A DNA stretch of 64,000 nt from NCBI GenBank assembly GCA_037130755.1, contig JBAXSI010000010.1:16351-80350 (forward strand), given 5' to 3'. Positions 1 to 21,552 of the stretch are shown here, piece by piece. The stretch is from Actinomycetes bacterium (GTDB lineage Bacteria; Actinomycetota; Actinomycetes; S36-B12). Each line of letters opens with the position of its first letter. Within the stretch, counting starts at the first letter, position 1. A program made the translations under genes and the position numbers. The notes beneath the pieces are model-generated. The model was not told the origin of the DNA. It did not search any database and was given only the letters and a program-made list of their open reading frames with translations.

Positions 1-768
1 CAGACGGGCCCACGTGTCGTCGGTGAGCTGCACATCCCAGTAGTCGACCCACACCGCCGGGGACAGCAGGTAGCCCTCCTGCACGGTGGGCAGCTCAACG
101 TCGGCGGGCCGGCCGGTGAGACGGGCCTGCCATGCAGGCATCCGAGCGGGCGGGAACTGCCTGCGCAGCGAGACCGTGGTCTCGCTGACAGTGACCTCGA
201 GCGGAGGAGGTGCGTCCCCCAGCACCGCCGGCGAGATATCCGGCGCTACGAAGGGCACCTGGGTGACGTCGGCGAAGTTCTCGTGCAGGAGCAGGAAGCT
301 TGCGTCGACCGGACGGTCGCCGGCGACAGTCGCCCAGTCGGCGTCGACCAGCCACGGCAGCTCGGGAAGCCGATGCAGTCGCGCGCGACCGGGCTCGCCG
401 AACCAGGCCCAGACCAGGCCGTCGGACTCTCGGACCGGGTAGGCGTCGACGAAGGCCCCGAGCGGCACGCGTGCCTGTGTGGGCACGCCGATGCACTGGC
501 CGCCGGCGTCGTAGACGAAGCCGCACAGGCCGCAGCGGATGGTGTCGCCCTGGACTGTTCCTGCGCTCAGCGGATAGGCGCGATGTGCGCATCGGTCCTC
601 GAGTGCGACTGCCGTACCTGCGCTCGTGCGGAAGAGCACGACGGGTCGGCCGACGGCGCGTACTGACGTGAGCGAGTTCGTGATGTCGGCGGAGCGGGCC
701 ACCGCGTACCAGCAGTCGGTGGGCACCACCACGGCTGCGGCCACTCGTCCTTGGAATGACTGGGTCAT
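1..768 (-). CDS. Rieske non-heme oxygenase alpha-subunit-like protein (VanA-like), degenerate ligands; truncated by left window edge
   Basis: Not in ORF track; translated by hand from ATG at 768: MTQSFQGRVAAAVVVPTDCWYAVA...VVLFRT...ALEDRCAHRAYPLSAG...IRCGLCGFVYDAGGQCIGVP...YPVRESDGLVWAWFG...LLLHENFADVTQVPFVA; open to base 1; GGAC/GGA RBS-like sequence upstream. Confidence 0.88.
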   Translation of the reverse strand, partial: MTQSFQGRVAAAVVVPTDCWYAVARSADITNSLTSVRAVGRPVVLFRTSAGTAVALEDRCAHRAYPLSAGTVQGDTIRCGLCGFVYDAGGQCIGVPTQARVPLGAFVDAYPVRESDGLVWAWFGEPGRARLHRLPELPWLVDADWATVAGDRPVDASFLLLHENFADVTQVPFVAPDISPAVLGDAPPPLEVTVSETTVSLRRQFPPARMPAWQARLTGRPADVELPTVQEGYLLSPAVWVDYWDVQLTDDTWARL

Positions 769-781
769 GTTCCGTTGTCCC

Positions 782-1756
782 TTACAGGTCGATGACGAGT
801 CGGTTGCCGCGGCATCGGGAGACGCAGACCATCATGGTCTCGTTCGAGGCCTTCTCCGAATCACTGAGCACGACGTCGCGATGGTCGACCTCGCCTTCGA
901 TGATCTCGGTTTCACAGGTTCCGCACACACCCTCGTGGCAGGACCCGAGCACCGGGATGCCCAACTCCTCGACGGCATGGAAGATGCTCTTGCCCGGTGG
1001 CACCGTCAGCGTCTGGCCCGAGCGGGCCAGCACCAGCTCGAACTCGGTGTCCTGCGACTCGTCGAGCTCCTTGCCCTGGAAGCGCTCGAGATGCAGGGCA
1101 CCCTCCGGCCACGCCTTGCAGGCGTCCTCGACGGCCTCGAGCAGCGGCTCCGGCCCGCAGGTGTAGACCAAGGTGTCAGTCGCGGGAGTTCCGAGCAGCT
1201 CGACGATGCGCTTGCTGAGCGTCAACTCGACCTCGTCGCGCGGCAGCAGCAGCACCTTGTCGCCGTACTGGGCCAGCGCCGGCAGGAACGCCATCGAGGC
1301 ACGTGATCGGCCGCCGTAGACCAGCCGCCAGTCCGCGCCGACCGCCTCGGCCTCCTCGATCATCGGCAGCATCGGGGTCACCCCGATCCCCCCGGCGATG
1401 AACAGGTACTTCGGCGACGAGACCAGCGGGAAGTGGTTGCGGGGCCCGCGCACGCGCACGCTGCTCCCGACGGCGAGGTTGTCGTGGATGAAGACCGAGC
1501 CGCCTCGGCTGTCCTCCGCGCGCAGTACGCCCACCTGCAGGCTCCGACTGTCCGACGGCGAGGAGCACAGCGAGTACTGGCGCGTCAGGTTGTCGGTGAG
1601 TACCAGGTCGACGTGCGCCCCCGGAGTCCACGCAGGGAGTGTCTGGCCATCCGGGTGAGCGAGCGTGAGCACGACGACGTCTTCCGCGGCACGGTCGACC
1701 GCCGTGACGAGGAGGTCCGCCTCGTACTCCTTCAGCGTCGTGGAGGTTTCGGTCAT
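782..1756 (-). CDS. PDR/VanB-type oxidoreductase (FMN/NAD + C-terminal plant-type 2Fe-2S)
   Basis: RQYSL, GPRNHF, IAGGIGVTP, YTCGP, CHEGVCGTC...CVS motifs; ATG 2 nt after the P450 stop (ORF track extends it spuriously to 2509). Confidence 0.93.
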   Translation of the reverse strand: MTETSTTLKEYEADLLVTAVDRAAEDVVVLTLAHPDGQTLPAWTPGAHVDLVLTDNLTRQYSLCSSPSDSRSLQVGVLRAEDSRGGSVFIHDNLAVGSSVRVRGPRNHFPLVSSPKYLFIAGGIGVTPMLPMIEEAEAVGADWRLVYGGRSRASMAFLPALAQYGDKVLLLPRDEVELTLSKRIVELLGTPATDTLVYTCGPEPLLEAVEDACKAWPEGALHLERFQGKELDESQDTEFELVLARSGQTLTVPPGKSIFHAVEELGIPVLGSCHEGVCGTCETEIIEGEVDHRDVVLSDSEKASNETMMVCVSRCRGNRLVIDL

Positions 1757-3056: not shown

Positions 3057-3866
3057 TCAGATGGCTTGCGAGTTGTCGGTCAGCAGGATGCCGCCGTTGA
3101 AGGTGGTGCCGACCTCGCAGAAGTAGCCGGCGATGATCTCGTCGACGGGAAGCAGCGATGCGGGCTCGTCCCACGGCGAGTCGAACAGGCTCAGTTCGGC
3201 GTCGCCGATCCACGGCTGGCCGAGGTCGAGATCGACGCCGCCCATCGTCACGACCTGGTTCATCGACATGCCTGCGCCCGGGACGAGGGAGGGCATGACG
3301 CGGTGGTGGAGCATCTTGTGGCCGTTGACGAAGCCGTTGCCGGGCGCAGGCTCGCGCAGTGTGACCTTGGCGGTCGCGAGCCGGTGGTCGTACGCGGCCA
3401 GTGACGCACCGAAAGTGCCGCCGGGAGCGATCCGCGCGGTGGCCTTCCCACGGGTGTAGGGCCGGGTGACATATGCGCTGCCGAGCTTCTTCGGGTAGCC
3501 CTGGAACCAGCCGCGCGCGATGGCGAAGTCAGTGGTGACCCAGATGAGGACGCATCGGCTGTACGTGACGCCCTGGTACTTGCATCGCACCACGACGAAC
3601 GCCTCGAGGTACTGGGACTTGATGGGGTCGAGCAGTTCCTCGAACGAACTGCTGCAGGACTGCCAGTCCGCCCAGATGAAGGCGACGGCACCGGGGTCCT
3701 CGTCGGCCAGCTCGACGTCGGGCGGGAGGATGGCGCGGACGTTGGCGGGATCGGTTCGGTATTCGACCGTGAGCAGGGTGCCGGAGTAATGCCAGGGCAT
3801 GTCCGGGATGACGGCACTGCGCCCGCTCTGCGTGTACGGCGGAAGGAAGCCCTGCGAGCTCGTCAC
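3057..3866 (-). CDS. acetoacetate decarboxylase-like superfamily protein
   Basis: PWHYSG, YLEAFVVV, ARGWFQGYPKKLG Schiff-base Lys motif; GTG start overlaps upstream TGA. Confidence 0.88.
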   Translation of the reverse strand: MTSSQGFLPPYTQSGRSAVIPDMPWHYSGTLLTVEYRTDPANVRAILPPDVELADEDPGAVAFIWADWQSCSSSFEELLDPIKSQYLEAFVVVRCKYQGVTYSRCVLIWVTTDFAIARGWFQGYPKKLGSAYVTRPYTRGKATARIAPGGTFGASLAAYDHRLATAKVTLREPAPGNGFVNGHKMLHHRVMPSLVPGAGMSMNQVVTMGGVDLDLGQPWIGDAELSLFDSPWDEPASLLPVDEIIAGYFCEVGTTFNGGILLTDNSQAI

Positions 3867-4741
3867 TTCTTCTCCTCGACGGTCGACGGGTAGAGGTCCT
3901 TGCTCGGAGTGCGGATGCCGCGGAACTCCCAGTCGCCTCCCATAGCGGTGGAGATGACCTCCTCGCTCTCGGTCGGCTGGGCGCCGCAGTCGTCGCGGAT
4001 GGCAACCGGCCCCTGCACGATCGTGTTGCTCAGGGTGCCGAGGCCCTCGACTTCCACCTCCACGACATCGCCCGGGTAGACGGTGCGCGAGAACGCCGGG
4101 GTGCCGGAGAACAGGATGTCGCCAGGCACCAGCGTGATCGTCCGAGCGATGTCGGCCACCAGGTAGTGCATGTCCCACTCCATCTCGGCCGTCGTGGAAT
4201 CCTGCTTCACGACCCCGTTCACCCGCGTCTGGATCCCCTTGTCGCGGAAGTCCCAGCCGGTGACAAGTCCCGGTCCGATGGGCGCAAGGGTGTCTGATCC
4301 CTTGACGCGCAGCATCGACCCGGCGTCGGTGTCGCGGAAGTCGTGCAGCCCGTAGTCGTTGCCCACGGTGTAGCCCGCGATGTAGTCGCCGGCCTCCTCG
4401 GGCGAGACGTTGCGACAGGTGCGGCCGATCACGATGACGATCTCGCCCTCGTAGTTCAGCCAATTGCACCGCTCCGGCCGCACCACGGCGCCCTTGTGCG
4501 AGTTGAGTGCCGTGATCGGCTTGTGGAAGTACGTCGGCGCGGGCGGCAGCTTCGTCATGAACTCCTGGGTGCGGGAGTCGTAGTTCAGGTGCACCGCGAT
4601 GATCTTCGTCGGCTCGCACGGCGGCAGGTGGATGGCGTCGTCGATGCCCACGATGCGGCCATCCGGCGCCACCAGCTCGTCGCCATGGCGCACGACCTGG
4701 ACGGGAGCACCCTCCAGCAGGATGCGGCGGTAGTCGGTCAT
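3863..4741 (-). CDS. fumarylacetoacetate hydrolase family protein (HpaG-like decarboxylase/isomerase)
   Basis: KIIAVHLNY, NYEGE, GYTVGND, KGSDT...PIGP, PGDILFSGTP motifs; ATGA overlap with upstream gene. Confidence 0.92.
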   Translation of the reverse strand: MTDYRRILLEGAPVQVVRHGDELVAPDGRIVGIDDAIHLPPCEPTKIIAVHLNYDSRTQEFMTKLPPAPTYFHKPITALNSHKGAVVRPERCNWLNYEGEIVIVIGRTCRNVSPEEAGDYIAGYTVGNDYGLHDFRDTDAGSMLRVKGSDTLAPIGPGLVTGWDFRDKGIQTRVNGVVKQDSTTAEMEWDMHYLVADIARTITLVPGDILFSGTPAFSRTVYPGDVVEVEVEGLGTLSNTIVQGPVAIRDDCGAQPTESEEVISTAMGGDWEFRGIRTPSKDLYPSTVEEKK

Positions 4742-5643
4742 ACAGCTACCCCCGAATGGGACCAACCTGTGCTCGGCCGGTCGAACCACACGTGCACCTG
4801 GCTGGTGCCGACGGAGTTCTCGTAGTCGCTGATCTGGACACCCGGTGCGCAGAAATCCTGCTCGCCGAGCGCCGCGGCCATCATGAGGTAGTGGGCGAAC
4901 TTGCCCTCGGGCCGGACCGTGAGGAAGTCGTCCATCGTCTCCAGCACTCGGTCATGCCGGCCCTCGGCAAACCAAGCGAGTCGCTCGTAGTCCATCTCGC
5001 GGGCCTTGTCGCTGACGATGTACTTCGGGTCTGATCGCTCCACCTCAGGGTTCAGCCGGATCTCACGCAATCCGTAGAACGTATGGGACAGCGAGCCGGT
5101 CGCGATGATGATGACCTTCCGATCCACGTCCGCGATCGCCTTTCCGATGGCCCGGCCGACCCTGAGGTAGTCCTCGGTGTCGGCGGTCTGGCACACGCTC
5201 ATCGAGAGCCAGCGCTTGTCGAGCCCCTTGCCGAGGTAGGACCACAGGTTGACAGAGGGGTAGTAGAGCGGAAGGTACTCATCGTCGATCGGTGTGATCC
5301 AGGTGCCGACCTCGTCTGCATGCGAGGCGATGGCATGCGCGAACTCCGCGTCGCCTTCCCACTCGTAGGGAATCTTGCTCATGCCGCGCGGCAGTTCCTC
5401 GGCGGTGAAAAAGCCCTTGCGATGCGCGTGCGCCGTAACGACAAACTCCACCGTCGTGAACCAGTGCGAGTCGAGCACCACGACCGTGTCGTAGTCCAGG
5501 GTCTCGAAGACGTCCTTGCGCAGCTGGTTCAGCGACGTGACCAGCGAGAGCTCGTTGCCCTCGTTCAACTCGCGGCGGGTGGTCTCGGGCAGCATGATCG
5601 TCGGGACATGCGACAGCAGCCCGGCGGCGACGAACTCTCCCAT
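4738..5643 (-). CDS. LigB-family extradiol dioxygenase, homoprotocatechuate 2,3-dioxygenase (HpaD)-like
   Basis: SHVPTIM, DSHW, TGSLSH motifs, C-terminal YENSVGT; adjacent HpaE-like ALDH. Confidence 0.85.
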   Translation of the reverse strand: MGEFVAAGLLSHVPTIMLPETTRRELNEGNELSLVTSLNQLRKDVFETLDYDTVVVLDSHWFTTVEFVVTAHAHRKGFFTAEELPRGMSKIPYEWEGDAEFAHAIASHADEVGTWITPIDDEYLPLYYPSVNLWSYLGKGLDKRWLSMSVCQTADTEDYLRVGRAIGKAIADVDRKVIIIATGSLSHTFYGLREIRLNPEVERSDPKYIVSDKAREMDYERLAWFAEGRHDRVLETMDDFLTVRPEGKFAHYLMMAAALGEQDFCAPGVQISDYENSVGTSQVHVWFDRPSTGWSHSGVAV

Positions 5644-5645: not shown

Positions 5646-7109
5646 CTATTCCTTCCAGCCGTTAGGCGCATAGACGGTGTTCTTGACGTCTGCATAGAAG
5701 TCGAAGGACCACAGGCCGCCCTCGCGGCCGACGCCCGACTTCTTCGAGCCACCGAACGGGGCCCCAAGGTCGCGTACGAAGAAGCAGTTCACCCAGATCG
5801 TCCCGGCGACGAGGTGCTTGGTGAACGCCTCAGCGCGCGGACGGCTGCCCGTCACGACGCACGCGGCCAGGCCGAACTCGGTGCCGTTGGCCAGTGCCAG
5901 CCCCTCCTCGTCGGTGCCGAACGTCTGCATGGTGAGGACCGGTCCGAAGACCTCCTGCGTGAGGATCTCGCTGCCCGTCTGTGCATCCCGGATCAGCGTG
6001 GGCTTGTAGTAATGCGTTCCGAGTTCGGTGTTGGCCTCGCCGCCGTACACGATGGTGGCACCGTCGGCTCGCGCCCGATCGACGAAGCCCTGCACCCTCT
6101 CGATGTGCTTGAGATGGATGTTGGGCCCGATCTGGGTCTCCTCGTCGCGCGGGTCGCCCTGTCGGATCTGCGCCGCACGCTCGGCGAAGCGCGCCGCGAA
6201 TGCATCCGCGATGCCGTCCTGTACGAGCAGTCGAGTGCCGGCAAGGCAGACCTGACCGGCGTTGTCGTACTGCTCGATCGCGAGGTCGATCGCGAGGTCG
6301 AGGTCGGCGTCGTCGAGGATCACGGTCGGACTCTTGCCACCCAATTCGAACGAGCAGGGGATCAGGTTCTCTGCCGCCGCACGGGCGATGACCTTGGCGG
6401 TCGGCACCGATCCGGTGAAGCAGATCCGCGACACGTCGGGGTTCAGCGTGAGCGGGGCACCTGCCTCGGCGCCGAGTCCCTGAACCACGTTGAAGACGCC
6501 GGCCGGCAGGCCTGCCTCGTGGGCCAGGTCGGCGAAGTACGAGGCGGTGAGCGGTGCCCACTCGGGTGGCTTGAGGACGACGGTGTCGCCCGACGCGAGC
6601 GCCGGGCCGATGCGCCAGGTGGCCAGCATGAGCGGGGCATTCCACGGCGTGATGACGACGGCCACACCGGACGGGTCCCACGAGACCACGTTGTCGTGGT
6701 CACGGGTCTGCCACACCGGATGGTGGAGCTTGTCGACCGCGTAGTCGGCGAAGAAGCGGATGTTCATCGCGACGCGTGGCATGACGCCGCGGCGGTGCGA
6801 ACGCAGGAGGGATCCGTTGTCGTGCGTCTCGATCTGCGAGAGCTCCTCGATGTGGGCCTCGATGTTGTCAGCGACGCGGTGGAGGATCTCCTGGCGCTCC
6901 ACCGGCGACATCCGAGCCCATCCAGGAAACGCGGCCTTGGCTGCCGCAACTGCGGCGTCGGCTTCAGCCTGACCGCCGCGGCTGACCAGCCCCAGTACGG
7001 ACCCGTCGACAGGGGAGACAGTCTCGAAGGTGCTGGTCGAGGCCACCCGCTGGCCACCGATCCAGTGGCGCGTGTCCACGTCGACACCTGCCACGGCAAT
7101 CGTCGTCAT
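5646..7109 (-). CDS. aldehyde dehydrogenase, hydroxymuconate-semialdehyde (HpaE/DmpC-like) type
   Basis: ITPWNAP, KPPEWAP, FELGGKSP, AGQVCLAG, CFFVRDL, GREGGLWSFDFY. Confidence 0.9.
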   Translation of the reverse strand: MTTIAVAGVDVDTRHWIGGQRVASTSTFETVSPVDGSVLGLVSRGGQAEADAAVAAAKAAFPGWARMSPVERQEILHRVADNIEAHIEELSQIETHDNGSLLRSHRRGVMPRVAMNIRFFADYAVDKLHHPVWQTRDHDNVVSWDPSGVAVVITPWNAPLMLATWRIGPALASGDTVVLKPPEWAPLTASYFADLAHEAGLPAGVFNVVQGLGAEAGAPLTLNPDVSRICFTGSVPTAKVIARAAAENLIPCSFELGGKSPTVILDDADLDLAIDLAIEQYDNAGQVCLAGTRLLVQDGIADAFAARFAERAAQIRQGDPRDEETQIGPNIHLKHIERVQGFVDRARADGATIVYGGEANTELGTHYYKPTLIRDAQTGSEILTQEVFGPVLTMQTFGTDEEGLALANGTEFGLAACVVTGSRPRAEAFTKHLVAGTIWVNCFFVRDLGAPFGGSKKSGVGREGGLWSFDFYADVKNTVYAPNGWKE

Positions 7110-7179: not shown

Positions 7180-7199
7180 ATTGTTCGGGTCCGAACGGA
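7180..7199. promoter_or_regulatory. palindromic operator copy 1 (ATTGTTCGGGTCCGAACGGA)
   Basis: 16/20 match to perfect palindrome ATCGTTCGGGCCCGAACGAT; abuts minus-strand -10 TATGCT (7173-7178) of the ALDH-to-Rieske operon. Confidence 0.7.
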
Positions 7200-7219: not shown

Positions 7220-7927
7220 TCAGGCGCTGTTGGCGACCTGGTCGAGGAAGGCGTCGACGAGCCGATGGGCGCGCTCGGCGGCGTCCTCCTGCTCGGCGAG
7301 CACGTGCTGATAGAGGATGTCGGGGTCCTGCCCATCGGCTGCGACCAGCTCGCGCCCACCGTTGCCGTACCAGCCCTGCAGCCCGTACGGGGTCAGCTCG
7401 GGATGGAATTGCACGCCAAGGTTCCGTCGAAGGATGAATGCCTGTGAGGCGAAGGAGTTGCGGGCGATCTCGTGCGCGTCCGGGGGCACTTGCCAGCGGT
7501 CGTAGTGGAACTGGAACCACGGACCGGAACTGACGATGTCCGGGAACTGGGTCCAGATGGATGCCCAGCCGATCTCGGCACGCGGAGCCGGCGCAACGGA
7601 GCCGCCATGGGCCCGCGCGAGCAGTTGACCGCCGAAACAGATGCCGAACACCGGGACGCCTGCGTCGTCGGCTCGCTTGAGCCACTCCAGTTCGGGAACC
7701 AGCCAGTTGCCGATCGTCGCGTCGTCCCAGGCACCCCATGGTGATCCCATGGGCACCAGCGCGTCGAAGTCCGTCGGGTCAGGGAAGTCGAAGGACACGT
7801 TCGGGGTGCTGAACTTCTCCGCCGGGACGATCAACTGCTCGACGACCTCATAGCCACGGTGCGCGAATCGCTCGGCGATCGGGCCGGCAGGACTGAGGTG
7901 GTCGTGCTGGAGAATCAGGACGCGCAT
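7220..7927 (-). CDS. class I glutamine amidotransferase-like (gamma-glutamylamide hydrolase), module A
   Basis: GICFGGQ nucleophile elbow and QFHPE (Cys-His-Glu triad); start MRVLILQH. Confidence 0.9.
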   Translation of the reverse strand: MRVLILQHDHLSPAGPIAERFAHRGYEVVEQLIVPAEKFSTPNVSFDFPDPTDFDALVPMGSPWGAWDDATIGNWLVPELEWLKRADDAGVPVFGICFGGQLLARAHGGSVAPAPRAEIGWASIWTQFPDIVSSGPWFQFHYDRWQVPPDAHEIARNSFASQAFILRRNLGVQFHPELTPYGLQGWYGNGGRELVAADGQDPDILYQHVLAEQEDAAERAHRLVDAFLDQVANSA

Positions 7928-8011: not shown

Positions 8012-8059
8012 TTCGGTCACATTCCCTCATCCACGTGGTTCTACTGAAGGAGTTGTTGG

Positions 8060-13523: not shown

Positions 13524-14867
13524 ATGGCCTGGGACCCCTCGGAGCGCAACCGCGTGGTGGGCCTGTGCGATGAGCACGGCATCCACACTGTCGAGTGCGT
13601 CGTCGTGGACACGTGGGGGATGCCCCGCGGCAAGCGGATCCCGGTCAAGCAGTTCCTGCGCGGCGGCGGCTTCCACATCGCGAACGTCATCTACACGTGG
13701 GATCCGACCTGCTTCATCTTCTCCACGCCTTTCGTCAACGAGGAGCACGGCTTCCCTGACATGCACGCGGTCCCCGACCTGGCGAGCTTTCGAATCGCGG
13801 GCTGGACGGACGGCGTGGCCATCGTCATGTGCGACACCGTCGACAACACCACGCACGAGCCGGTCCCGATGGACGCCCGTCGCATGCTGAAGGACCAGAT
13901 CGCTCGCGCAGCGGCGCTGGGATACGGAGTGGATGCAGCGACCGAGCTCGAGTGCCACTTCTTCACTGAGGACTGGAAGCCGATCTACGACGACATCAAC
14001 TGCTACTCGATCATGCGCGGCTTCGAGATGGAGCCGTTCATGTTCGACATCCGCGAGTCGCTCCGCAAGACGGGCATCGAGGTCGAGGCCACGAACGTCG
14101 AGTACGGACCCGGGCAGACCGAGATCAACCTGCGGTATGGCCCGCTCATGGACATGGCCGATCACACCGTCTACTTCAAGTACATCGTCCGGCTGGTGGC
14201 CAAGCGGCACGGCCTGAACGTCACCTTCATGGCCAAGCCGTTCCTCACCGAGGCGGGCAATGGCATGCACGTGCACCAGTCGCTGACCCGCAACGGGGCC
14301 AACCTCTTCTCCGTGACCGACGAGGACTCGGTCCTCGGCAATGCGCTGATGCGCCGCTACCTGACGGGCCTGCTCGCGCATCACAAGGAACTGCAACTGG
14401 TGATGACGCCCACCATCAGCGGCTACAAGCGCGTTCAGGACTACTCCTTCTCACCGACCCAGGTCACGTGGGGCCTGGACCACCGGCTGGTCGGCGTGCG
14501 GTCGATCGTCGGTGCCGGCTCGTCCAACCGGCTCGAAGCACGCTGGGCCGCAGCCGACGCGAATCCCTACCTGGTCCTGGCCGGGGTGCTCGCCGCAGGG
14601 CTGGACGGACTGGACAACGACTACGCACTCATTCCGCAGGTCGTCGGCGATCCGCACGCGGACGAGCAGTGGGAGCGACTGCCCGTCGACATCAACGGAG
14701 CCATCGACAACTTCGACACGCCGTTCACGCGCAGCGTGTTCGGTGACACCTTCGTCGACACGTTCTTGATCATGCAGCGCCGAGAGGCCGAGGAGTTCGC
14801 CGCGAATGCTGATCAGGGCGAGGACGTCAGCGCATGGGAGCTGAAGCGGTACCGGGCGGTCATCTAG
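13524..14867 (+). CDS. glutamine synthetase-like gamma-glutamyl ligase, module B
   Basis: PRGKRIP, ATELEC, EYGPGQTEIN, GNGMHVHQS, SGYKR, WGLDHR, RLEAR...ANPYL; flap YSFSP; GGAGG RBS. Confidence 0.92.
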   Translation: MAWDPSERNRVVGLCDEHGIHTVECVVVDTWGMPRGKRIPVKQFLRGGGFHIANVIYTWDPTCFIFSTPFVNEEHGFPDMHAVPDLASFRIAGWTDGVAIVMCDTVDNTTHEPVPMDARRMLKDQIARAAALGYGVDAATELECHFFTEDWKPIYDDINCYSIMRGFEMEPFMFDIRESLRKTGIEVEATNVEYGPGQTEINLRYGPLMDMADHTVYFKYIVRLVAKRHGLNVTFMAKPFLTEAGNGMHVHQSLTRNGANLFSVTDEDSVLGNALMRRYLTGLLAHHKELQLVMTPTISGYKRVQDYSFSPTQVTWGLDHRLVGVRSIVGAGSSNRLEARWAAADANPYLVLAGVLAAGLDGLDNDYALIPQVVGDPHADEQWERLPVDINGAIDNFDTPFTRSVFGDTFVDTFLIMQRREAEEFAANADQGEDVSAWELKRYRAVI

Positions 14868-15575
14868 ATGCCGCGAGTGCTTCTGATCAGCCACGAGCCT
14901 GAGGCGCATCCGGCGATCGTCGGCGAGATCCTGGTCGCACGTGGATACGACGTCGATGAGCACGTCGTGCTCGGTGACCCTGCGGCTCCGGACACGGACT
15001 TCCCTGACCTTGATGCGTACGACGCCGTCATGGCCTTCGGCTCGTTCTCCAACGCCTACGACGAGCGGCATCGACCCTGGGTGGAGGCGGAGATCAACCT
15101 CATCGGTCGGCTGCTCGAGGAGGACAAGCCCTATCTCGGGGTCTGCTTCGGCGGGCAGTTGCTCGCCGAGAGTGTCGGCGGCTGGGTCGAGAAGGCACCG
15201 CCCGGGATGGACGAGATCGGCCTGGTATCGATCGAGACGGTCATCGACGGCCTGCCGGTGCCGACTGGTCCGTGGTTCACGTGGCATGAGGACCGCACCG
15301 TCCTGCCTGCGGATGGCTCGGTCGAGGTGCTGGCCCGCAACGCCAACGCGGTGCAGTTGTTTCGGCGCGGCCGCGCGGTCGGCACGCAGTTCCACCCGGA
15401 GGCGGACGTGCCGCTGGTGGCCGGCTGGGCCGCAATCGGGCCGGACCACATTCCCAGTCACACGTCGGAGCAGGAGATCCTCGACGACCTTGCAGCCGCG
15501 CAGGCACAGACCCGGTCCAACTGCGAGCAGTTGATCGACTGGTTCCTGCGCGACGTGGCCGAGGTTGGCGGATGA
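14868..15575 (+). CDS. class I glutamine amidotransferase-like hydrolase, module B
   Basis: GVCFGGQ and QFHPE; ATG directly follows the GS stop. Confidence 0.9.
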   Translation: MPRVLLISHEPEAHPAIVGEILVARGYDVDEHVVLGDPAAPDTDFPDLDAYDAVMAFGSFSNAYDERHRPWVEAEINLIGRLLEEDKPYLGVCFGGQLLAESVGGWVEKAPPGMDEIGLVSIETVIDGLPVPTGPWFTWHEDRTVLPADGSVEVLARNANAVQLFRRGRAVGTQFHPEADVPLVAGWAAIGPDHIPSHTSEQEILDDLAAAQAQTRSNCEQLIDWFLRDVAEVGG

Positions 15576-16729
15576 ACGAAGTGAGCGGACCGCTGGAAGG
15601 GATCGTCGTCGTCTCGCTGGAGGCCGCCGTCTCGGCACCGTTCGCGACACGGCAGCTGGCTGATCTGGGTGCCACCGTCATCAAGGTAGAGCGCCCCGGT
15701 GGTGACTTCGCGAGGCACTACGACAGCGTCGTCCAAGGGGAGTCGGCCTTCTTCGTGTGGGCCAACCGCGGCAAGCAGTCTGTGGTGCTCGACGTCAAGG
15801 ATGATGCTGACCTCGCCATGCTCCGGGCGCTCATTGCTGGAGCTGATGTGTTCTTGCACAACCTCTCGCCGCGGGCGGCCGCGGATCTGGGCATCGGTGC
15901 GCAGCAGCTCATCGAGAAGCACCCGTCGCTCATCGCGTGCGAGATCTCCGGCTACGGCCACGGTGGGCCGCGTACCGACGACAAGGCCTACGACCTCGCG
16001 ATCCAGGCCGAGGCCGGGGCGTTCTCCGTGACGGGAACGGATACGCCGAGCAAGGTGGGCTTCTCCGTGGCGGACATCTGCGCTGCGATGTACACCCTCA
16101 CCAGCATCCTTGCTGCGCTCGTGCGTCGCGAGCGCACGGGTGAGGGTGCTGCGGTCCATGTCTCGATGCTGGACGCATTGGCCGAGTGGATGTCTGCGCC
16201 GATGTATGCAGCTGTCTACGGGCCGGGGCAGGCGCCTCGCACGGGTCGACGCCACCACGCGATCGCCCCGTACGGCACGTTCCTGCTGAGTGACGGCAGC
16301 ACGGTGCTGATCGCCGTGCAGAGCGATGGCGAGTGGTGCAGCCTCGCCGAGCACGTTCTCGAGGATGCCTCGCTCGGAACAGACGCCAGGTTCGCCACCA
16401 ACTCGGACCGCATCACGAACGTGGACGAACTCGAGGCGATCCTGTCCGCCGAGCTCGCGAGCATTCCAGTCGACGAGGCACGTCGTCGGCTTGCCGCCGG
16501 TCGGATCGCCAACGCCCGGGTCAACGACCTCCGCGGCGTTTGGGACCACGAGCAACTTCGCGCCCGCGACCACTTCCACCCGGTGAGCACCCCCTCGGGG
16601 GTGATCGAGATGCTCGATGCGCCATTCGACATCAGCGGCTGGCCGGTCCCGCACGGTCCGGTGCCCGCACTGGACGAGCATGATGCCGCGTTCGTCCAGT
16701 CGGTGATCGACCGCGGTCGGGCTCAGTAG
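15572..16729 (+). CDS. family III CoA transferase (CaiB/BaiF)
   Basis: PLEGIVVVSLE...APFATRQLADLGA, NRGKQS, KAYDLAIQAEAG, catalytic ADI. Confidence 0.93.
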   Translation: MNEVSGPLEGIVVVSLEAAVSAPFATRQLADLGATVIKVERPGGDFARHYDSVVQGESAFFVWANRGKQSVVLDVKDDADLAMLRALIAGADVFLHNLSPRAAADLGIGAQQLIEKHPSLIACEISGYGHGGPRTDDKAYDLAIQAEAGAFSVTGTDTPSKVGFSVADICAAMYTLTSILAALVRRERTGEGAAVHVSMLDALAEWMSAPMYAAVYGPGQAPRTGRRHHAIAPYGTFLLSDGSTVLIAVQSDGEWCSLAEHVLEDASLGTDARFATNSDRITNVDELEAILSAELASIPVDEARRRLAAGRIANARVNDLRGVWDHEQLRARDHFHPVSTPSGVIEMLDAPFDISGWPVPHGPVPALDEHDAAFVQSVIDRGRAQ

Positions 16730-17877
16730 GACTTCGGCAGTCCAAGTACATGCTGGCCGAGGTAGGCGAGCACGAGGTTGTTGTTGATGGGAGCGACTTG
16801 GTAGAGGCGGGTCTCGCGGAACTTGCGCTCGATGTCGTACTCGACGGCGAACCCGAAGCCGCCGTGCGTGTCGATCGCGGCGTTCGCTGCGGCCCACGAC
16901 GCCTCCGAGGCCAGGAGCTTGGCCATATTGGCCTCAGCGGCGCACTTCTCTCCCTGGTCGTATCTCGCTGCGGCATCGAACCGCACGAGATCGGCGGCAC
17001 GAAGCGAGGCGTACGCGCGGGCAAGCGGGAACTGCACTCCCTGATTGGCACCGATCGGGCGTCCGAAGACCTCGCGGCCGTTGGCGTAGTCGACGGCGCG
17101 TTCGAGCACGAAGCGCCCGTCGCCAATGCACTCGGAGGCGATCAGGATCCGCTCGGCATTCATCCCGTCGAGGATGTAGCGGAATCCTCTGCCCTCCTCG
17201 CCGATGAGTGCGTCGCCGGGTATCACGACGTCGTCGAAGAACACCTCGGTCGTGTTGTGGTTCATCATCGTGCGGATCGGCTTGATCGTCATGCCCGTCA
17301 CGCTTCGCATGTCGAAGATGAAGGCGGACAGTCCCTCCGTCGGCTTGGCGCATTCCTCGTAGGGCGTCGTTCGCGCGAGGAGCAGCATGAGGTCGGAGTA
17401 GAGGGCCCGCGACGTCCAGATCTTCTGGCCGTTGATGCGCCAGCCGTCCGCGACCCGTTCGGCGCGCGTGCGAATCCGCGTGGTCTCCGAGCCGGCTTCG
17501 GGCTCGGTGACCCCGAAAGCCTGGAGACGAAGGGTGCCCTCGGCGATGCCGGGCAGGTAGCGGGCCTTCTGCTCGGCGCTGCCGTGCCGCAGCAACGTTC
17601 CCATCACGTACATCTGCGCATGGCAGGCGGACGGGCTTCCGCCCGACGCCGAGATCTCCTCCAGGATGATCGACGCCTCGGTGAGCGTGGCTCCGCCACC
17701 GCCGTACTCCTCGGGCACCAGGGCGGCGAGGTAGCCGGCGTCGGTGAGGGCCTGCACGAACTCCTCGGGGTACGAGTCCGGCTCGAGGCCCTGCCAGTAG
17801 GCGCCGTCGAACGGTGCGCAGATCTGGCGGACCCCGTCGCGCAGGTCGTCGTATTCCGGTTTCTCGGTCAGCAGCAC
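16723..17877 (-). CDS. acyl-CoA dehydrogenase
   Basis: FGVTEPEAGS, INGQKIWTS, RQ/EVFGRPIG, HGGFGF...IERKFRE; 7-bp convergent overlap with CoA transferase. Confidence 0.94.
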   Translation of the reverse strand: MLLTEKPEYDDLRDGVRQICAPFDGAYWQGLEPDSYPEEFVQALTDAGYLAALVPEEYGGGGATLTEASIILEEISASGGSPSACHAQMYVMGTLLRHGSAEQKARYLPGIAEGTLRLQAFGVTEPEAGSETTRIRTRAERVADGWRINGQKIWTSRALYSDLMLLLARTTPYEECAKPTEGLSAFIFDMRSVTGMTIKPIRTMMNHNTTEVFFDDVVIPGDALIGEEGRGFRYILDGMNAERILIASECIGDGRFVLERAVDYANGREVFGRPIGANQGVQFPLARAYASLRAADLVRFDAAARYDQGEKCAAEANMAKLLASEASWAAANAAIDTHGGFGFAVEYDIERKFRETRLYQVAPINNNLVLAYLGQHVLGLPKSY

Positions 17878-17880: not shown

Positions 17881-17902
17881 CTATTTGTATCATTTATCAA
17901 AC
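17881..17902. promoter_or_regulatory. putative GntR operator in 44-bp divergent ACAD/ALDH intergenic region
   Basis: TTTGTATCATTTATCAAA; shares CATTTATCAA with 13484. Confidence 0.6.
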
Positions 17903-17921: not shown

Positions 17922-19406
17922 ATGACAACGACCGCTCCCGACTGGAGCGCGCTGGCTGCGACCGTCCAGTACCCGACCGACCTGCTCATCGGCGGGCGAT
18001 GGACTCCCGGCTCGACGCGGGGGGAAGTCGTCAGCCCCATCGACGGACGCGTCGTGGCCGAGGTGGCGATGGGCGACGGGGCGGACATCGATCGCGCGGT
18101 CGCCTCGGCACGGGCCGCCTTCGACGACCGGCGCTGGGCCGGCATGGCGCCGATGGACCGCAAGGACGTCCTCATCCGCTGGGCCCACCTGGTCAACGGG
18201 CACGCCGAGCAGTTGGCGGTGCTGACGGCTCTGGAGATGGGCAAGCCGGCGCGGGAGGCCAAGGCGATCGACGTCCGGGCGTGCCACCGAACCCTGCGTT
18301 GGTACGGCGAGGCGATCGACAAGGTGCTCGACGAGATGCCGAATGTGGGCGACTCCTCGTGGGCGATGATCGAGCGGGAGCCGGCCGGAGTTGTCGGCGC
18401 GATCACGCCGTGGAACTTCCCGCTGACTCTCGAGACCTGGAAGATCGCACCGGCGCTGGCGGTGGGCTGCTCGATGGTCCTCAAGCCCGCGGAACTGTCG
18501 CCACTGACGGCGCTCTACGTCGCGCAGCTCGGACTCGAGGCGGGCCTGCCGGACGGAGTGCTCAACGTCGTCAACGGGACGGGTCCCACCGCGGGTGCTG
18601 CGCTGGCCGGTCACCCCGACGTCGACATCGTCACCTTCACGGGCTCGACCGCCACCGGCCGGGCGATCATGACGGCGGCCGCGCAGTCCAACATGAAGCG
18701 GCCCTACCTCGAGCTCGGGGGCAAGGGCGCGAACATCGTCTTCCCCGACGCCGACCTCGACAAGGCCGCGGCAACCGCAGCGTGGTCCGTCACCTACAAC
18801 GCGGGGCAGATGTGCACTGCCGGTTCACGCCTGATCGTGCATGAGTCCGTGAAGGACGACGTGGTGGGCAGGATTCTCGAGGCGATGACCGGGCTGCAGC
18901 CCGGCGACCCGCTTGATCACCAGACGCCAATCGGCGCTATCGCCAGCGCCCGACAGCTCCAGACAGTGCACGGCATCGTCTCGGCCGGCCTGCGAGAGGG
19001 TGGACGGCTTCTGGTCGGAGGGGAGCCGGTTCTCGTCGGGACGGGCGGCTCGTACTACCCGCCAACGGTCGTCGACAACCTCCGACCGGACTCGCTGCTG
19101 GCGCAGAAGGAGGTGTTCGGCCCGGTGCTGTCCGTCCTCACATTCGACACCGACGACGAGGCCGTGCGGATCGCGAACTCGACCGCCTACGGCCTGGCGT
19201 CGGCGGTGTGGACCAATGACCTCAGTCGCGCGCGACGCGTGTCCAAGGCACTGCGCATGGGGACGGTGTGGGTGAACTGCTACGAGGAGGGTGACATGAC
19301 CGTTCCCTTCGGCGGCGTCAAGCAGTCTGGCTTCGGCAGCGACAAGTCGCTGCACGCCATGGACAAGTTCACCGACCTGAAGACCACGTGGATCGAGCTG
19401 TCATGA
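17922..19406 (+). CDS. aldehyde dehydrogenase, PuuC-like
   Basis: WYGEAIDKV, TPWNFPL, LELGGK, AGQMCTAGSR, GSDKSLHAMDKFTDLKTTWIEL (PuuC-type C-terminus); GGAGG RBS. Confidence 0.9.
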   Translation: MTTTAPDWSALAATVQYPTDLLIGGRWTPGSTRGEVVSPIDGRVVAEVAMGDGADIDRAVASARAAFDDRRWAGMAPMDRKDVLIRWAHLVNGHAEQLAVLTALEMGKPAREAKAIDVRACHRTLRWYGEAIDKVLDEMPNVGDSSWAMIEREPAGVVGAITPWNFPLTLETWKIAPALAVGCSMVLKPAELSPLTALYVAQLGLEAGLPDGVLNVVNGTGPTAGAALAGHPDVDIVTFTGSTATGRAIMTAAAQSNMKRPYLELGGKGANIVFPDADLDKAAATAAWSVTYNAGQMCTAGSRLIVHESVKDDVVGRILEAMTGLQPGDPLDHQTPIGAIASARQLQTVHGIVSAGLREGGRLLVGGEPVLVGTGGSYYPPTVVDNLRPDSLLAQKEVFGPVLSVLTFDTDDEAVRIANSTAYGLASAVWTNDLSRARRVSKALRMGTVWVNCYEEGDMTVPFGGVKQSGFGSDKSLHAMDKFTDLKTTWIELS

Positions 19407-20080
19407 GCGCTGACCCGATACCGCTGCGCCCCCGACGTCGGGGCAACCTCGCCGACGCGGTCGCCGACCACATCCGTGAGGGGATCCTCAACGGCACGAT
19501 GAAGCCCGGCACGCGGGTCGATCAGGATGCGATCGCCGAGGAGCTCGGCGTCAGCCGGCTGCCGGTGCGCGAAGCCTTGATCACGCTCGACCAGGAGGGC
19601 CTGATCGAGAACATCCCGCGGCGGGGCGCGTACGTGCAGCGCCTCGAGCGGGAGGACATCATCGACCACTACCAGCTCTTCGGACAGGTGGCCGGCCTGT
19701 CCGCTGCTCGCGCGGTGGCGCGGCTCGACGACGACGGACTCGCGCGACTCGTTGCCATCTACGAGGCGATCGGATCCACCGAAGATCGTGCCGAGCAGGA
19801 GCGACTCAACTTCGAATTCCACCGCACCATCAACAAGGCGTGTGGGAGCAAGCGGATCGACAGCATGCTGCGCCTGCTCACTCGGTCGCTGCCGATGCCG
19901 TACTTCGAGTTCGTCCCCGAGTGGCTCGACGAGGCGCAGCGCCAGCACAAGGAGATCGTGGACGCGTTCCAGCGACGCGATCCGATGGCGGCCCAACGGG
20001 CCATGGAACTGCACCTCAACGCAAGTGCCCGCCACGCCGTTGATGTGCTCGAGCACATGAACTTCTTCGAGGAGCAGTGA
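19403..20080 (+). CDS. GntR (FadR/FCD) transcriptional regulator
   Basis: wHTH LGVSRLPVREAL, FCD NFEFH...HKEIVDA; ATGA overlap. Confidence 0.93.
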   Translation: MSADPIPLRPRRRGNLADAVADHIREGILNGTMKPGTRVDQDAIAEELGVSRLPVREALITLDQEGLIENIPRRGAYVQRLEREDIIDHYQLFGQVAGLSAARAVARLDDDGLARLVAIYEAIGSTEDRAEQERLNFEFHRTINKACGSKRIDSMLRLLTRSLPMPYFEFVPEWLDEAQRQHKEIVDAFQRRDPMAAQRAMELHLNASARHAVDVLEHMNFFEEQ

Positions 20081-21552
20081 TGGACCGCTATCAGCACTGG
20101 ATCAATGGCCGCCGCACGCCGGCATCGTCAGGTGAGGTCCTCGCGACGCTCGATCCGATGACGACCGAGCCGTGGGCCGAGATCGCGCGGGGCGATGCGG
20201 ACGACGTTGACGCGGCGGTGCATGCCGCGCAGGCTGTCTTCTCGTCCTGGCGCGACGCCGGTCCGACGAAGCGTGCCGACATCCTGTGGCGCCTCGGTGA
20301 CCTCATCGCCGAACACGCAGACGAGCTGGCCGCGCTCGAGGCGCGTGATGCGGGCAAGGTCGTCCGTGAGGTCAAGGGTCAGATGGTGTCGCTGCGCGCC
20401 TGGTACCACTACTACGCGAGCCTGGCGTACCAGACTGAGGGCCGGACGATCCCGCAGGACCGTGCGAGCGTCACGGTCTTCACGCAGCGCGTGCCCTTCG
20501 GCGTGGTCGGTGTGATCCCGGCCTTCAACTCCCCGATGCTGCTGGGCGGAATGGGCCTGGCGCCGGCGCTGGCGGCGGGCAACTGCGTTGTCGTGAAGCC
20601 ACCGGAGGTCAACTCGCTGTCCCTGCTTCGACTGGGAGAGCTGGCGAAGGAAGCGGGCCTTCCTGACGGCTGCCTCAACATCGTCACCGGACTGGGGCAG
20701 GAGGCCGGCGACGCACTCGTCGCGCATCCACTCGTGCGCAAGCTCTGGTTCACCGGCGGGCCTGACAGCGCCCGCTTCGTTGCCGAGCGCGCTGCGCAGC
20801 ACCTCAAGCCACTCGTCCTGGAGCTGGGTGGCAAGAGCGCGAACATGTTCTTCGCGGATGTGCGCATCGACGAGGTCGTCAACGGTGTCATCGCCGGCAT
20901 CTTCGCGGCGGCTGGCCAGACGTGCGTTGCGGGATCTCGGCTGCTTGTCCACGAGTCGATCGCGGAGCAGCTGATCGATGCCGTGGCGGCGCGAGCGAGG
21001 ACGATTCGGCTGGGCGATCCCGTGGATCCCGACACGGACATGGGCCCGATGTCGCAGGAGAAGATCCTCGCGGGCGTGGCCTCACGGGTCGACGAGGCGG
21101 TGAGCGAAGGTGCACACCTGATCGTCGGAGGCGCAGACGGCGATCGGCCCGATCGCGGCTGGTTCTACCCGCCGACCGTCCTCGCCGGTGTCACGAACCA
21201 GATGTCCGTGGCGCGCAACGAACTGTTCGGCCCGGTGCTGTCTGTCATCACCTTCGCCGACGAGGACGAGGCGATCGCCATCGCCAACGACTCGCCGTTC
21301 GCCCTTGCCGCGGGGGTGTGGACGCGCGACCTTGGCCGTGCGCACCGCGTCGCGCGTCAACTGGACACGGGAACCGTCTGGGTCAACATGTACCGGGCGC
21401 TGCAGTTCGCCACGCCCTTCGGCGGAAACAAGCTCTCCGGCTATGGGCGCGAGAACGGCCTCGACGGTTTCGCGGAGTTCACCCAGCCGAAGGCGGTATG
21501 GATCGAGTCGGCGGACGAGCCGGTGGGCGACCCGTTCGTACTGCGCGCCTGA
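20080..21552 (+). CDS. aldehyde dehydrogenase
   Basis: [39 protein letters not shown]. Confidence 0.92.
   Translation: MDRYQHWINGRRTPASSGEVLATLDPMTTEPWAEIARGDADDVDAAVHAAQAVFSSWRDAGPTKRADILWRLGDLIAEHADELAALEARDAGKVVREVKGQMVSLRAWYHYYASLAYQTEGRTIPQDRASVTVFTQRVPFGVVGVIPAFNSPMLLGGMGLAPALAAGNCVVVKPPEVNSLSLLRLGELAKEAGLPDGCLNIVTGLGQEAGDALVAHPLVRKLWFTGGPDSARFVAERAAQHLKPLVLELGGKSANMFFADVRIDEVVNGVIAGIFAAAGQTCVAGSRLLVHESIAEQLIDAVAARARTIRLGDPVDPDTDMGPMSQEKILAGVASRVDEAVSEGAHLIVGGADGDRPDRGWFYPPTVLAGVTNQMSVARNELFGPVLSVITFADEDEAIAIANDSPFALAAGVWTRDLGRAHRVARQLDTGTVWVNMYRALQFATPFGGNKLSGYGRENGLDGFAEFTQPKAVWIESADEPVGDPFVLRA

Follow-up and report, generated by a model that had tools for sequence, protein, structure and literature searches.

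A putative amine-catabolism island in an actinomycete genome joins glutamine synthetase-like ligases and cytochrome P450s to a co-inherited set of ring-cleavage genes

Results

The locus

Nucleotides 1 to 21,552 of the window (the whole 64,000-nt stretch analysed here, positions 16,351 to 80,350 of contig JBAXSI010000010.1, assembly GCA_037130755.1, from an Actinomycetes bacterium of the lineage S36-B12) hold two groups of genes, hereafter modules A and B, each with a glutamine synthetase (GS)-like ligase (GS-A, GS-B), a hydrolase resembling class I glutamine amidotransferases (GATases; GAT-A, GAT-B) and a cytochrome P450 (P450-A, P450-B). Module A also holds a LigB-type extradiol dioxygenase, an aldehyde dehydrogenase (ALDH1), a FAH-family enzyme and a protein of the acetoacetate decarboxylase (ADC) family (Table 1). 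Reading frames were chosen by the G+C content of third codon positions (GC3; the window has 64-70% G+C) and named by Pfam and NCBIfam. The original prediction, made from the sequence alone, had listed two GS-like ligases, two GATases, two P450s, a PDR-type reductase, an APC permease, an alcohol dehydrogenase (ADH), three ALDHs and a ring-cleavage set. All of these are present, and the ADC-family gene, a CoA-transferase, an acyl-CoA dehydrogenase, a GntR regulator and a truncated Rieske oxygenase are to be added to the list. Taken as a whole, the region reads as a chromosomal catabolic island of two gamma-glutamylation-dependent amine modules with separate regulators, an interpretation to which we give an even chance.

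Module A is inherited as a unit

The neighbourhood of GS-A was compared over 80 loci encoding relatives of 60-86% identity, mostly from uncultured freshwater Actinobacteria (Nanopelagicales, Rhodoluna and other Microbacteriaceae) with a few from isolates (Frigoribacterium, Lacisediminihabitans, Marisediminicola), by a tblastn matrix of 29 proteins of the island and its flanks. A P450-A-like gene, the ADC-family, FAH-family and LigB genes, ALDH1 and GAT-A all lie beside GS-A in 27 of the 31 loci whose flanks are full (9 kb or more upstream and 4 kb or more downstream); in each of the other four, between one and four of these six core partners are missing. Among 151 genomes of the same order GS-A is found in 41, LigB in 40 and a P450-A-like gene in 42, with all three together in 38, a partial set in five (mostly fragmented assemblies) and none in 108; these counts are given without a statistic, relatives not being independent of one another. 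The carriers include genomes of 1.2-1.8 Mb. On such co-occurrence counts module A is a real co-inherited unit, whose arrangement goes far beyond chance, and the combination of GS-like ligase, GATase, this P450 group and HpaD-like genes on which the original prediction was built is conserved well outside the genome in which it was noticed.

An orthologous cluster lies on a plasmid of Streptomyces canus (NZ_CP107732.1), with transposase and integrase genes flanking it. The identities there are 74% for the FAH-family enzyme, 65% for the ALDH, 63% for LigB, 61% for both the ADC-family protein and the P450, 51% for a ferredoxin reductase, 49% for a Peptidase_C26 (C26) hydrolase and 47% for the GS-like ligase, and an ALDH gene adjoins that of a PuuD-family hydrolase. 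In addition, the S. canus cluster has GcvT-like, PurU and FolD genes, a third P450 with its own ferredoxin and an F420-dependent oxidoreductase (L088:487-3347 and 8294-10856). The third P450 is about 24% identical to P450-A and P450-B, and further examples of the PurU, third P450 and F420 oxidoreductase set are found at L017:11354-13141 and in 26 other related loci; tblastn with the S. canus proteins found no orthologue of these three in the host genome.

The P450 of the cluster, which sits between a MarR gene and GAT-A, comes in two types. Type 1 shares 72% identity or more with P450-A and occurs in 12 loci, with a PDR-type reductase adjoining it in all 12 and a VanA-like oxygenase in nine of them; type 2 is 50-72% identical to P450-A and occurs in 49 loci, none of which has either companion. 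A ferredoxin reductase lies within the fetched flank of 30 type-2 and two type-1 loci, and as the ferredoxin gene stands at the very edge of several type-1 loci, the short flank probably conceals the reductase in these.

Two sets of operators

In an alignment of 20 loci a 20-nt palindrome, ATCGTTsGGnnCCsAACGAT, is conserved a few tens of bases before the GS-A start codon, and of the 79 GS-A loci used, 73 have it before the gene with up to six mismatches. A position weight matrix (PWM) built from the sites upstream of GS-A was scanned over the whole host genome (3.67 Mb in 203 contigs, 98% complete, with the window on the contig that we number C2). Its best match falls in the divergent promoter of GAT-A and GS-A and its third and fourth fall upstream of the permease and of ALDH1, with a weaker fourth copy of the palindrome at the promoter shared by a ferredoxin and a C26 hydrolase outside the window. 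The match ranking second (C20:2481, in L089) lies upstream of a gene for a 678-aa multihaem cytochrome c on a 4.7 kb contig and was treated as unrelated, being probably a chance match or part of a mis-binned contig. Searches of the window and of its upstream flank (L001) for the consensus, exact or with three mismatches, gave nothing, because the local copies carry four, and a blind palindrome scan gave nothing useful.

The promoters of module B are without this palindrome and have in common, instead, the motif core CATTTATCAA, of which the 64 kb hold exactly two copies (at 13484 and 17891) against an expectation of 0, both of them in module B promoters. The presence of the palindrome at the promoters of one module and of CATTTATCAA at those of the other points to two separate regulons. 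Judged from these sites, module A appears to be a MarR-type regulon that takes in genes upstream of the window, and module B (P450-B, the Zn-ADH, GS-B, GAT-B, the CoA-transferase, the acyl-CoA dehydrogenase, ALDH2, the GntR protein and ALDH3) is probably a regulon of its own under the GntR protein.

This bears on whether module A is one pathway at all. It could be that two independent pathways share one locus and one regulator, i.e., an aliphatic (polyamine-type) gamma-glutamyl/P450 system and a ring-cleavage operon of the 4-hydroxyphenylacetate type. Freshwater Actinobacteria are polyamine users, and trios of GS, GATase and P450 genes occur without ring-cleavage genes in Proteobacteria. Yet the presence and absence of the parts is near one-to-one across the 151 genomes, the same operator stands at the ligase, permease, ALDH1-operon and ferredoxin/C26 promoters, the linkage is retained on the Streptomyces plasmid, and no hydroxylase besides the P450 or the Rieske enzyme is there to feed the dioxygenase, all of which makes this division improbable.

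The original prediction had also taken the two modules for equivalent twins, a view that has to be given up. Their genes are old paralogues, 31% (GS-A and GS-B), 34% (GAT-A and GAT-B) and 38% (P450-A and P450-B) identical, and their operators differ. Moreover, of the 151 order genomes 20 have GS-B, and each of these also has GS-A (20 of the 41 GS-A carriers), and close ALDH2 orthologues (at least 63% identity) are found in 13 genomes, every one with module B; module B is an accessory that occurs only where module A is. ALDH2 was considered as a second dehydrogenase of module A and rejected, as it tracks module B, to which ALDH3, the CoA-transferase and the acyl-CoA dehydrogenase were assigned as well.

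Table 1. Genes and operator-like sites of the two modules, in window coordinates
Feature	Position	Strand	Basis and remarks
VanA/DdmC-like Rieske monooxygenase	1..768	-	Pfam Rieske and VanA_C; N-terminal 256 of 346 aa
PDR/VanB-type reductase	782..1756	-	Pfam FAD_binding_6, NAD_binding_1, C-terminal 2Fe-2S
Cytochrome P450-A, 419 aa, type 1 variant of the cluster P450	1759..3018	-	Pfam p450
ADC-family protein, MppR/Sbi00515-like	3057..3800	-	Pfam ADC, E 3.5e-53
FAH-family enzyme, HpaG-like decarboxylase/isomerase, start uncertain	3863..4789	-	Pfam FAA_hydrolase
LigB-type extradiol dioxygenase, HpaD-like	4738..5643	-	Pfam LigB
ALDH1, HpaE-like semialdehyde dehydrogenase	5646..7109	-	Pfam Aldedh
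Operator-like palindrome between GAT-A and ALDH1, upstream of ALDH1	7180..7199	.	PWM 16.7; rank 4 genome-wide
GAT-A, class I glutamine amidotransferase-like hydrolase	7220..8020	-	Pfam GATase
Operator-like palindrome, GAT-A/GS-A divergent promoter	7992..8011	.	best PWM match in genome, 23.7 bits
GS-A, GS-like ligase, proposed gamma-glutamyl-amine synthetase	8060..9412	+	Pfam Gln-synt_C
Operator-like palindrome upstream of permease	9524..9543	.	PWM 19.1 bits; rank 3 genome-wide
APC-family permease	9573..11147	+	Pfam AA_permease_2; N-terminal translation
Cytochrome P450-B	11206..12456	-	Pfam p450
Zn-dependent alcohol dehydrogenase (Zn-ADH)	12453..13415	-	Pfam ADH_N/ADH_zinc_N; AdhP-like, below cut-off
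Module-B operator-like motif TACATTTATCAAGTA, Zn-ADH/GS-B divergent promoter	13482..13496	.	extended site with identical core also precedes GS-B in 7 other loci
GS-B, second GS-like ligase	13524..14867	+	Pfam
GAT-B, class I GATase-like hydrolase, abuts GS-B stop codon	14868..15575	+	Pfam GATase
Family III CoA-transferase, 4-nt overlap with GAT-B	15572..16729	+	Pfam CoA_transf_3, E 2.9e-101
Acyl-CoA dehydrogenase	16723..17877	-	Pfam Acyl-CoA_dh_N/M/1; GC3 0.88 on minus strand
Second copy of module-B motif core CATTTATCAA, acyl-CoA dehydrogenase/ALDH2 divergent promoter	17891..17900	.	also conserved upstream of ALDH2 in L004
ALDH2, PuuC-like aldehyde dehydrogenase	17922..19406	+	Pfam; start set by conservation with L004
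GntR/FCD-family regulator, candidate module B regulator	19388..20080	+	Pfam GntR and FCD
ALDH3, aldehyde dehydrogenase	20077..21552	+	Pfam Aldedh

Genes of the two modules

Neither ligase is a true glutamine synthetase, this being excluded by the GlnA model TIGR00653, against which GS-A scores 272.9 and GS-B 204.8 bits with a cut-off of 429.15. GAT-A is present in 72 of the 80 loci and probably starts near 7930, the alignment with GAT-B beginning at its residue 33; the permease has a long open reading frame from 9507 and a likely start at 9573. For P450-A, the GC3 frame plot and the translation place the start at 3018 and not at 3213, where the long open reading frame begins. Both P450s are nearest to the CYP125/124 group by their best PDB matches (the reconstructed CYP125 ancestor at E 5e-102, CYP124 and CYP125 at E 1e-64 to 1e-75), in a setting of amine and aromatic catabolism and not of sterols; by the naming rule of these enzymes, members of one CYP family share at least 40% identity. 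The gene of the Rieske monooxygenase extends 272 nt past the window start (L001:16078-17118), its product has dicamba O-demethylase DdmC as best PDB match (E 1e-23), and it is found in nine of the 80 loci, only alongside a type-1 P450.

The three enzymes of the ring-cleavage set each score below a curated Hpa model. LigB reaches 130 bits against a cut-off of 316 for HpaD (TIGR02298), with no other NCBIfam model matching at E 1e-5, and its sole PDB match at E<=1e-5 is 8iq8, a 3,4-dihydroxyphenylacetate 2,3-dioxygenase; ALDH1, present in all 43 loci with at least 9 kb of upstream flank, reaches 509.6 against 638 for HpaE (TIGR02299); and the FAH-family enzyme reaches 192.8 against 276.4 for the HpaG C-terminal model (TIGR02303). 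Cleavage of 2-aminophenol by the LigB protein was considered and is unlikely, as no Amn structure or model matches it at E<=1e-5. A second LigB-family gene lies elsewhere in the host genome (C35:7480-8079, minus strand; 98.8 bits to PF02900).

The ADC-family gene, present in 62 of the 80 loci, matches 4jm3 (MppR) and 4zbo in the PDB and falls below the cut-off of the MppR model (TIGR04460, 172.4 against 380 bits). Its product is proposed to be the hydratase-aldolase of the lower pathway. MppR, the nearest relative, is a biosynthetic enzyme, and the LigB family includes 3,4-dihydroxyphenylalanine (DOPA) dioxygenases, and one might thus suppose that the cluster is biosynthetic, turning a glutamylated aromatic amine into a small metabolite by way of a ring cleavage like that of betalamic-acid or alkylproline chemistry. 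This we find hardly credible: nonribosomal peptide synthetase, polyketide synthase, export and tailoring genes were not seen in the cluster, its content of permease, MarR, ALDH and FAH genes is typical of catabolism, and it is kept in streamlined genomes of 1.2-1.8 Mb.

In module B the Zn-ADH gene overlaps that of P450-B by 4 nt, and GS-B, GAT-B and the CoA-transferase are translationally coupled. The CoA-transferase falls below the cut-offs of the oxalate, mesaconate and glutarate transferase models, and ALDH2 below that of PuuC (NF007352, 531 against 850 bits).

Genes beyond the window

The window edge cuts the cluster, which runs about 9 kb further upstream on the same contig (L001) through genes for MarR, a PuuD-like C26 hydrolase, a small ferredoxin (C2:14595-14774), a ferredoxin reductase (L001:13399-14589), DUF202, a group II pyridoxal phosphate (PLP) decarboxylase, a 514-aa protein and a thiamine pyrophosphate (TPP)-dependent enzyme. 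MarR is present in all 43 loci with enough upstream flank. The C26 hydrolase scores 56.7 bits against a PuuD cut-off of 266 (NF008471). The PLP decarboxylase has its best PDB match in 4obu, which we take to be a tryptophan decarboxylase, followed by DOPA, tryptophan and tyrosine decarboxylases. The group II decarboxylase of the cluster differs between lineages, which have recruited two non-orthologous enzymes of about 33% identity.

The 514-aa protein (L001:9583-11127, minus strand) is co-transcribed with the ferredoxin, the reductase and the decarboxylase, and is 58-72% conserved in nine related loci. Pfam, NCBIfam and PDB searches gave no match and the ESM Atlas gave unannotated clusters alone; the stretch ILGAGAEMG may be a dinucleotide-binding motif, and an AlphaFold2 model from a seq-alignment of seven sequences was unusable, with a mean predicted local distance difference test score of 36.5. 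The TPP-dependent enzyme (L001:7914-9551, minus strand) ends the same operon and comes closest to models of 5-guanidino-2-oxopentanoate decarboxylase (258 bits, under the cut-off). None of the 80 related loci showed it, and it could provide a side entry from a 2-oxo acid to an aldehyde.

Downstream, the island is limited by EamA, glgA and glgC, and the same three neighbours are kept in two related genomes (L041 and L059), which indicates that the locus is chromosomal and vertically kept. The last two genes, of which glgA is above the cut-off of the Corynebacterium-type glycogen synthase model, form a divergent pair at 22608-25063 of the window and bound the island.

Discussion

The proposed route of module A starts from an arylethylamine, possibly supplied by the linked decarboxylase, that would be gamma-glutamylated, turned into a catechol by the P450 and cleaved in the ring, probably with the tag still on, an outline that in our judgement is as apt to be right as wrong. 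We infer every chemical step of it, as well as the order of the steps, the substrate and the retention of the tag through ring cleavage. An amine with an aromatic ring, most likely an arylethylamine (tyramine, phenylethylamine, or a methoxy or methyl derivative), would be imported by the APC permease, or else the PLP decarboxylase would form it in the cell from an aromatic amino acid. GS-A would then join the amine to the gamma-carboxyl group of glutamate, using ATP, and P450-A would convert the protected amide to a catechol with electrons from the ferredoxin and its reductase or from the PDR-type reductase, probably assisted in the host genome by the VanA-like Rieske oxygenase. The HpaD-like LigB dioxygenase would open the ring, and ALDH1, the FAH-family decarboxylase/isomerase and the ADC-family enzyme (replacing HpaH/HpaI) would take the fission product to pyruvate and a short aldehyde.

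In the version that we prefer, the glutamyl tag stays on through ring fission, and the end product would be a gamma-glutamyl amino-aldehyde or amino acid, from which the C26 hydrolase and/or GAT-A would release glutamate and an amino acid such as 4-aminobutyrate (GABA). Ring fission with the tag on is favoured because no deaminating enzyme is in the conserved set and because a side-chain amine left uncapped is expected to react with the aldehyde from ring fission and close a ring. The meta pathway of 4-substituted catechols is established chemistry and serves here as an analogy: gamma-glutamyl-dopamine would give pyruvate and gamma-glutamyl-4-aminobutanal, an intermediate of the Puu pathway, to be finished by a PuuC-like ALDH and a PuuD-like hydrolase, and the ALDH-hydrolase pair of S. 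canus matches the finishing enzymes so required. The same logic of tagging, oxidation and untagging may be applied by module B to a different, probably aliphatic or cyclic, amine, where the P450 product would be oxidised to an acid by the Zn-ADH and two ALDHs, and this acid would be carried further by the CoA-transferase and the acyl-CoA dehydrogenase.

Several observations weigh against the route of module A as we draw it. The tag-retained version requires a second ALDH, and close ALDH2 orthologues occur in none of the 21 genomes with module A only, an ALDH2-like gene lying nearby in just two of the 80 loci. The C26 hydrolase is found in just 29 of the 43 loci with enough flank and went undetected in several Microbacteriaceae loci, the PLP decarboxylase scores nearly as high against lysine and diaminobutyrate decarboxylases as against the aromatic ones, an isomerase of the 4-oxalocrotonate-tautomerase type was not seen, and CYP125 and CYP124 are hydroxylases of terminal methyl groups and not of rings. 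Finally, the PurU-like deformylase (19 loci), the third P450 (23 loci) and the TIGR03619 F420 oxidoreductase (27 loci), together with the GcvT-like and FolD genes of S. canus, hint at a tetrahydrofolate-linked demethylation that has no place in the scheme.

The original prediction had the same parts in another order, with glutamylation and P450 oxidation followed by deglutamylation, and the product passing to an HpaD/HpaE-like pathway. The gene set behind it is indeed co-conserved, and it is the place of the untagging step that has become doubtful. In that order GAT-A would remove the tag after hydroxylation by the P450, an unlinked enzyme would take the free amine to homoprotocatechuate, and an ordinary HpaD/E/G pathway would follow. 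GAT-A is the most tightly linked hydrolase and is divergent from GS-A with a common operator, the order of steps is that of Ipu, the LigB, ALDH1 and FAH proteins match the HpaD, HpaE and HpaG models best, and PGAP names the S. canus orthologue of LigB a 3,4-dihydroxyphenylacetate 2,3-dioxygenase. But the conserved cluster holds no amine oxidase, aminotransferase or amine dehydrogenase, the Hpa cut-offs are missed widely, and a second, PuuD-like hydrolase is left without a role. The host genome gave no match to copper amine oxidase, homogentisate dioxygenase or HpaB (PF11794, HpaB_N) and none above cut-off to 4-hydroxyphenylpyruvate dioxygenase; no other route to a catechol and no deaminating step was found in it. 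On this balance untagging first is unlikely as a full account, and a ring cleavage that acts on the catechol with its tag in place is no less likely than deglutamylation beforehand.

The missing deaminating enzyme could also be accounted for by N-dealkylation, in which ligase, P450 and amidase jointly substitute for an amine oxidase. The P450 would hydroxylate the carbon beside the amide nitrogen, the carbinolamide would fall apart into glutamine and an arylacetaldehyde, the GATase would be a plain glutaminase, which is what class I GATases are by ancestry, and an ALDH would give an arylacetate, to be hydroxylated or demethylated and sent down the homoprotocatechuate route. In line with this, the GATase-P450-GS trio of Ruegeria sp. 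TM1040 adjoins the phenylacetate genes paaABCD, ALDH1 also scores against models of the phenylacetaldehyde dehydrogenase StyD, and the extra oxygenases (the VanA-like enzyme and the third P450) could form the catechol. However, the core would need two ALDH activities and a ring hydroxylase where one ALDH is conserved and no match to HpaB was found in the host genome, and the conservation of one or two hydrolases would be left over, as glutamine does not call for a dedicated one. We regard N-dealkylation as rather improbable.

Returning to the tag-retained route, its boldest version would have abundant lake Actinobacteria, the streamlined lineages of 1.2-1.8 Mb among them, and some Streptomyces degrade aromatic biogenic amines (possibly tyrosine and phenylalanine too, via the decarboxylase) with a P450 group specialised on gamma-glutamyl amides, the cap being kept through ring opening, a Puu-like end in gamma-glutamyl-GABA and an ADC-family hydratase-aldolase. 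This full combination is a tentative proposal, and one that we would sooner doubt than believe. If it were true, meta-cleavage of N-glutamylated intermediates would be met here for the first time, and ADC family V enzymes would have their first physiological role in catabolism.

To our knowledge, wherever gamma-glutamylation of amines has been described it leads to one of two things, a simple oxidation (Puu, Ipu) or the removal of the nitrogen by a Rieske dioxygenase (aniline, naphthylamine). In the present cluster the ligase is firmly tied to a P450 and to ring-cleavage genes of a homoprotocatechuate-like kind, and the block is inherited as one in two actinobacterial orders, planktonic members with very small genomes included. 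Conservation of this kind suggests that the substrate is natural and common in lake water, and that there is a flux of carbon and nitrogen invisible to current annotation. It would also give a physiological setting to three poorly understood groups, namely the GS-like ligases, the CYP group tied to GS genes across phyla, and the ADC family V enzymes, and direct testing is possible in cultured carriers, i.e., S. canus NBC_00633 and the Frigoribacterium, Lacisediminihabitans and Marisediminicola isolates.

Comparison with known systems

Neither module is orthologous to Ipu, Puu, Atd or Hpa. As the original prediction had supposed, the best matches do not lead to a characterised pathway, with all curated NCBIfam cut-offs missed. 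A literature search, with subscription journals and supplements outside its scope, found no description of the cluster or of any route in bacteria that leads through gamma-glutamyl-arylamines and involves a P450 and meta-cleavage, nor, in the literature so covered, of bacterial catabolism of gamma-glutamyl-tyramine or gamma-glutamyl-dopamine.

The nearest in logic is Ipu of Pseudomonas sp. KIE171 (isopropylamine to L-alaninol), which is said to glutamylate the amine, let a P450 oxidise the amide and then hydrolyse it, the same logic as proposed here. A homologous annotated cluster lies on the Paenarthrobacter aurescens TC1 plasmids pTC1 and pTC2. The annotated IpuC of that strain is 33% identical to GS-A and about 33-34% to GS-B, no closer than other GS-like enzymes, and the ipu P450 is 29% identical to both P450-A and P450-B, which indicates a different CYP family. 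The ipu GATase has no significant similarity to GAT-A or GAT-B, only the C26 protein being similar to it (33%). Both systems pair the P450 with a ferredoxin and a ferredoxin reductase, the reductase here being 33% identical to that of ipu, but Ipu is without the ring-cleavage genes, the ADC-family gene and the MarR operator, all of which the present cluster has. According to extracts of PMC1713258 and of the pTC1 annotation, the Ipu-like pTC1 set shares with this cluster a GS-like ligase, a P450, a ferredoxin and ferredoxin reductase, amidotransferase-type hydrolases and ALDHs.

For module B the best analogue is PipA/MorA (CYP151) of Mycobacterium, an actinobacterial P450 with ferredoxin and reductase that acts on the amines piperidine, pyrrolidine and morpholine. 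Pseudomonas sp. KU43P reportedly has a gamma-glutamylpiperidide route. The likeness between PipA/MorA and module B is drawn from gene descriptions, and module B adds the coupled CoA-transferase and the acyl-CoA dehydrogenase; its gene content fits, with low confidence, a route of the Ipu/PipA kind in which an aliphatic or cyclic amine is oxidised and the product activated as a CoA ester. In Gulosibacter molinativorax, an extract of PMC9477822 has co-expressed 'glutamine synthetase' genes numbered next to the PipA-type P450s (GMOLON4_438/437 and 3052/3051).

With Puu (PuuA-D of E. coli) the island has in common a GS-like ligase, a PuuC-like ALDH (ALDH2) and the PuuD-like C26 hydrolase, and the end steps proposed above are Puu chemistry; against the PuuA model (NF045547), however, GS-A scores 241 and GS-B 198 bits with a cut-off of 650. 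The oxidative step of Puu belongs to the flavin oxidase PuuB, and here a P450 would take that role: no member of an amine-oxidase family was found among the cluster proteins scanned, PuuB not having been searched for genome-wide. The aniline (Atd/Tdn) and 1-naphthylamine (Npa) systems, with ligases of the GoaS type, share a GS-like ligase and a GAT-like hydrolase that precede oxygenation of the aromatic amine, as told in an extract of PMC11335346. Their two-subunit Rieske dioxygenase strips the nitrogen to give catechol, which goes down a catechol 2,3-dioxygenase-like pathway, whereas this cluster has a P450, joined in nine of the 80 loci by a single-subunit VanA-type Rieske enzyme, and an HpaD-like lower pathway. 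That lower pathway shares with the homoprotocatechuate (Hpa) pathway a LigB-type dioxygenase, an NAD-dependent ALDH and a FAH-family decarboxylase/isomerase, the Hpa models scoring best for all three. The hydratase HpaH, the aldolase HpaI and the isomerase HpaF were not seen in the cluster (HpaH and HpaI were not searched for genome-wide), and the ADC-family gene stands in that position.

Relatives of P450-B extend the comparison beyond Actinobacteria. Among five matches examined out of 298, four (37-43% identity) have genes of the GS family and for amidotransferases as neighbours, on plasmids of Mesorhizobium loti, Ruegeria sp. TM1040, Sagittula stellata and S. canus, and a Rhodococcus relative is without such neighbours; this linkage across phyla is the strongest indirect evidence for a P450 group that acts on gamma-glutamyl amides. 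The closest of these, 43% identical, is flanked on its M. loti plasmid by GS-family, PuuD-family, APC and Zn-ADH genes. On pML2037 (L082, NZ_CP016080.1 250490-269722) the module-B-like set of Zn-ADH, P450, PDR-like reductase, APC permease, GS-family and PuuD-family genes adjoins a gene with the PGAP name 3-sulfinopropanoyl-CoA desulfinase, a CaiB CoA-transferase and a putative sulfate exporter, neighbours that raise the idea of a sulfur-bearing amine as substrate for some members. A gene of the acyl-CoA dehydrogenase family at this locus adds to the likeness with module B. On the Ruegeria sp. TM1040 megaplasmid (L083, NC_008043.1 772130-791347) a 2Fe-2S reductase gene accompanies paaABCD beside the trio, where an entry of phenylethylamine into the Paa pathway is possible. 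The island would belong to a known kind, gamma-glutamylation-dependent amine catabolism, and what is new in it is the tie to ring cleavage, the ADC-family enzyme and the wide conservation in abundant lake bacteria.

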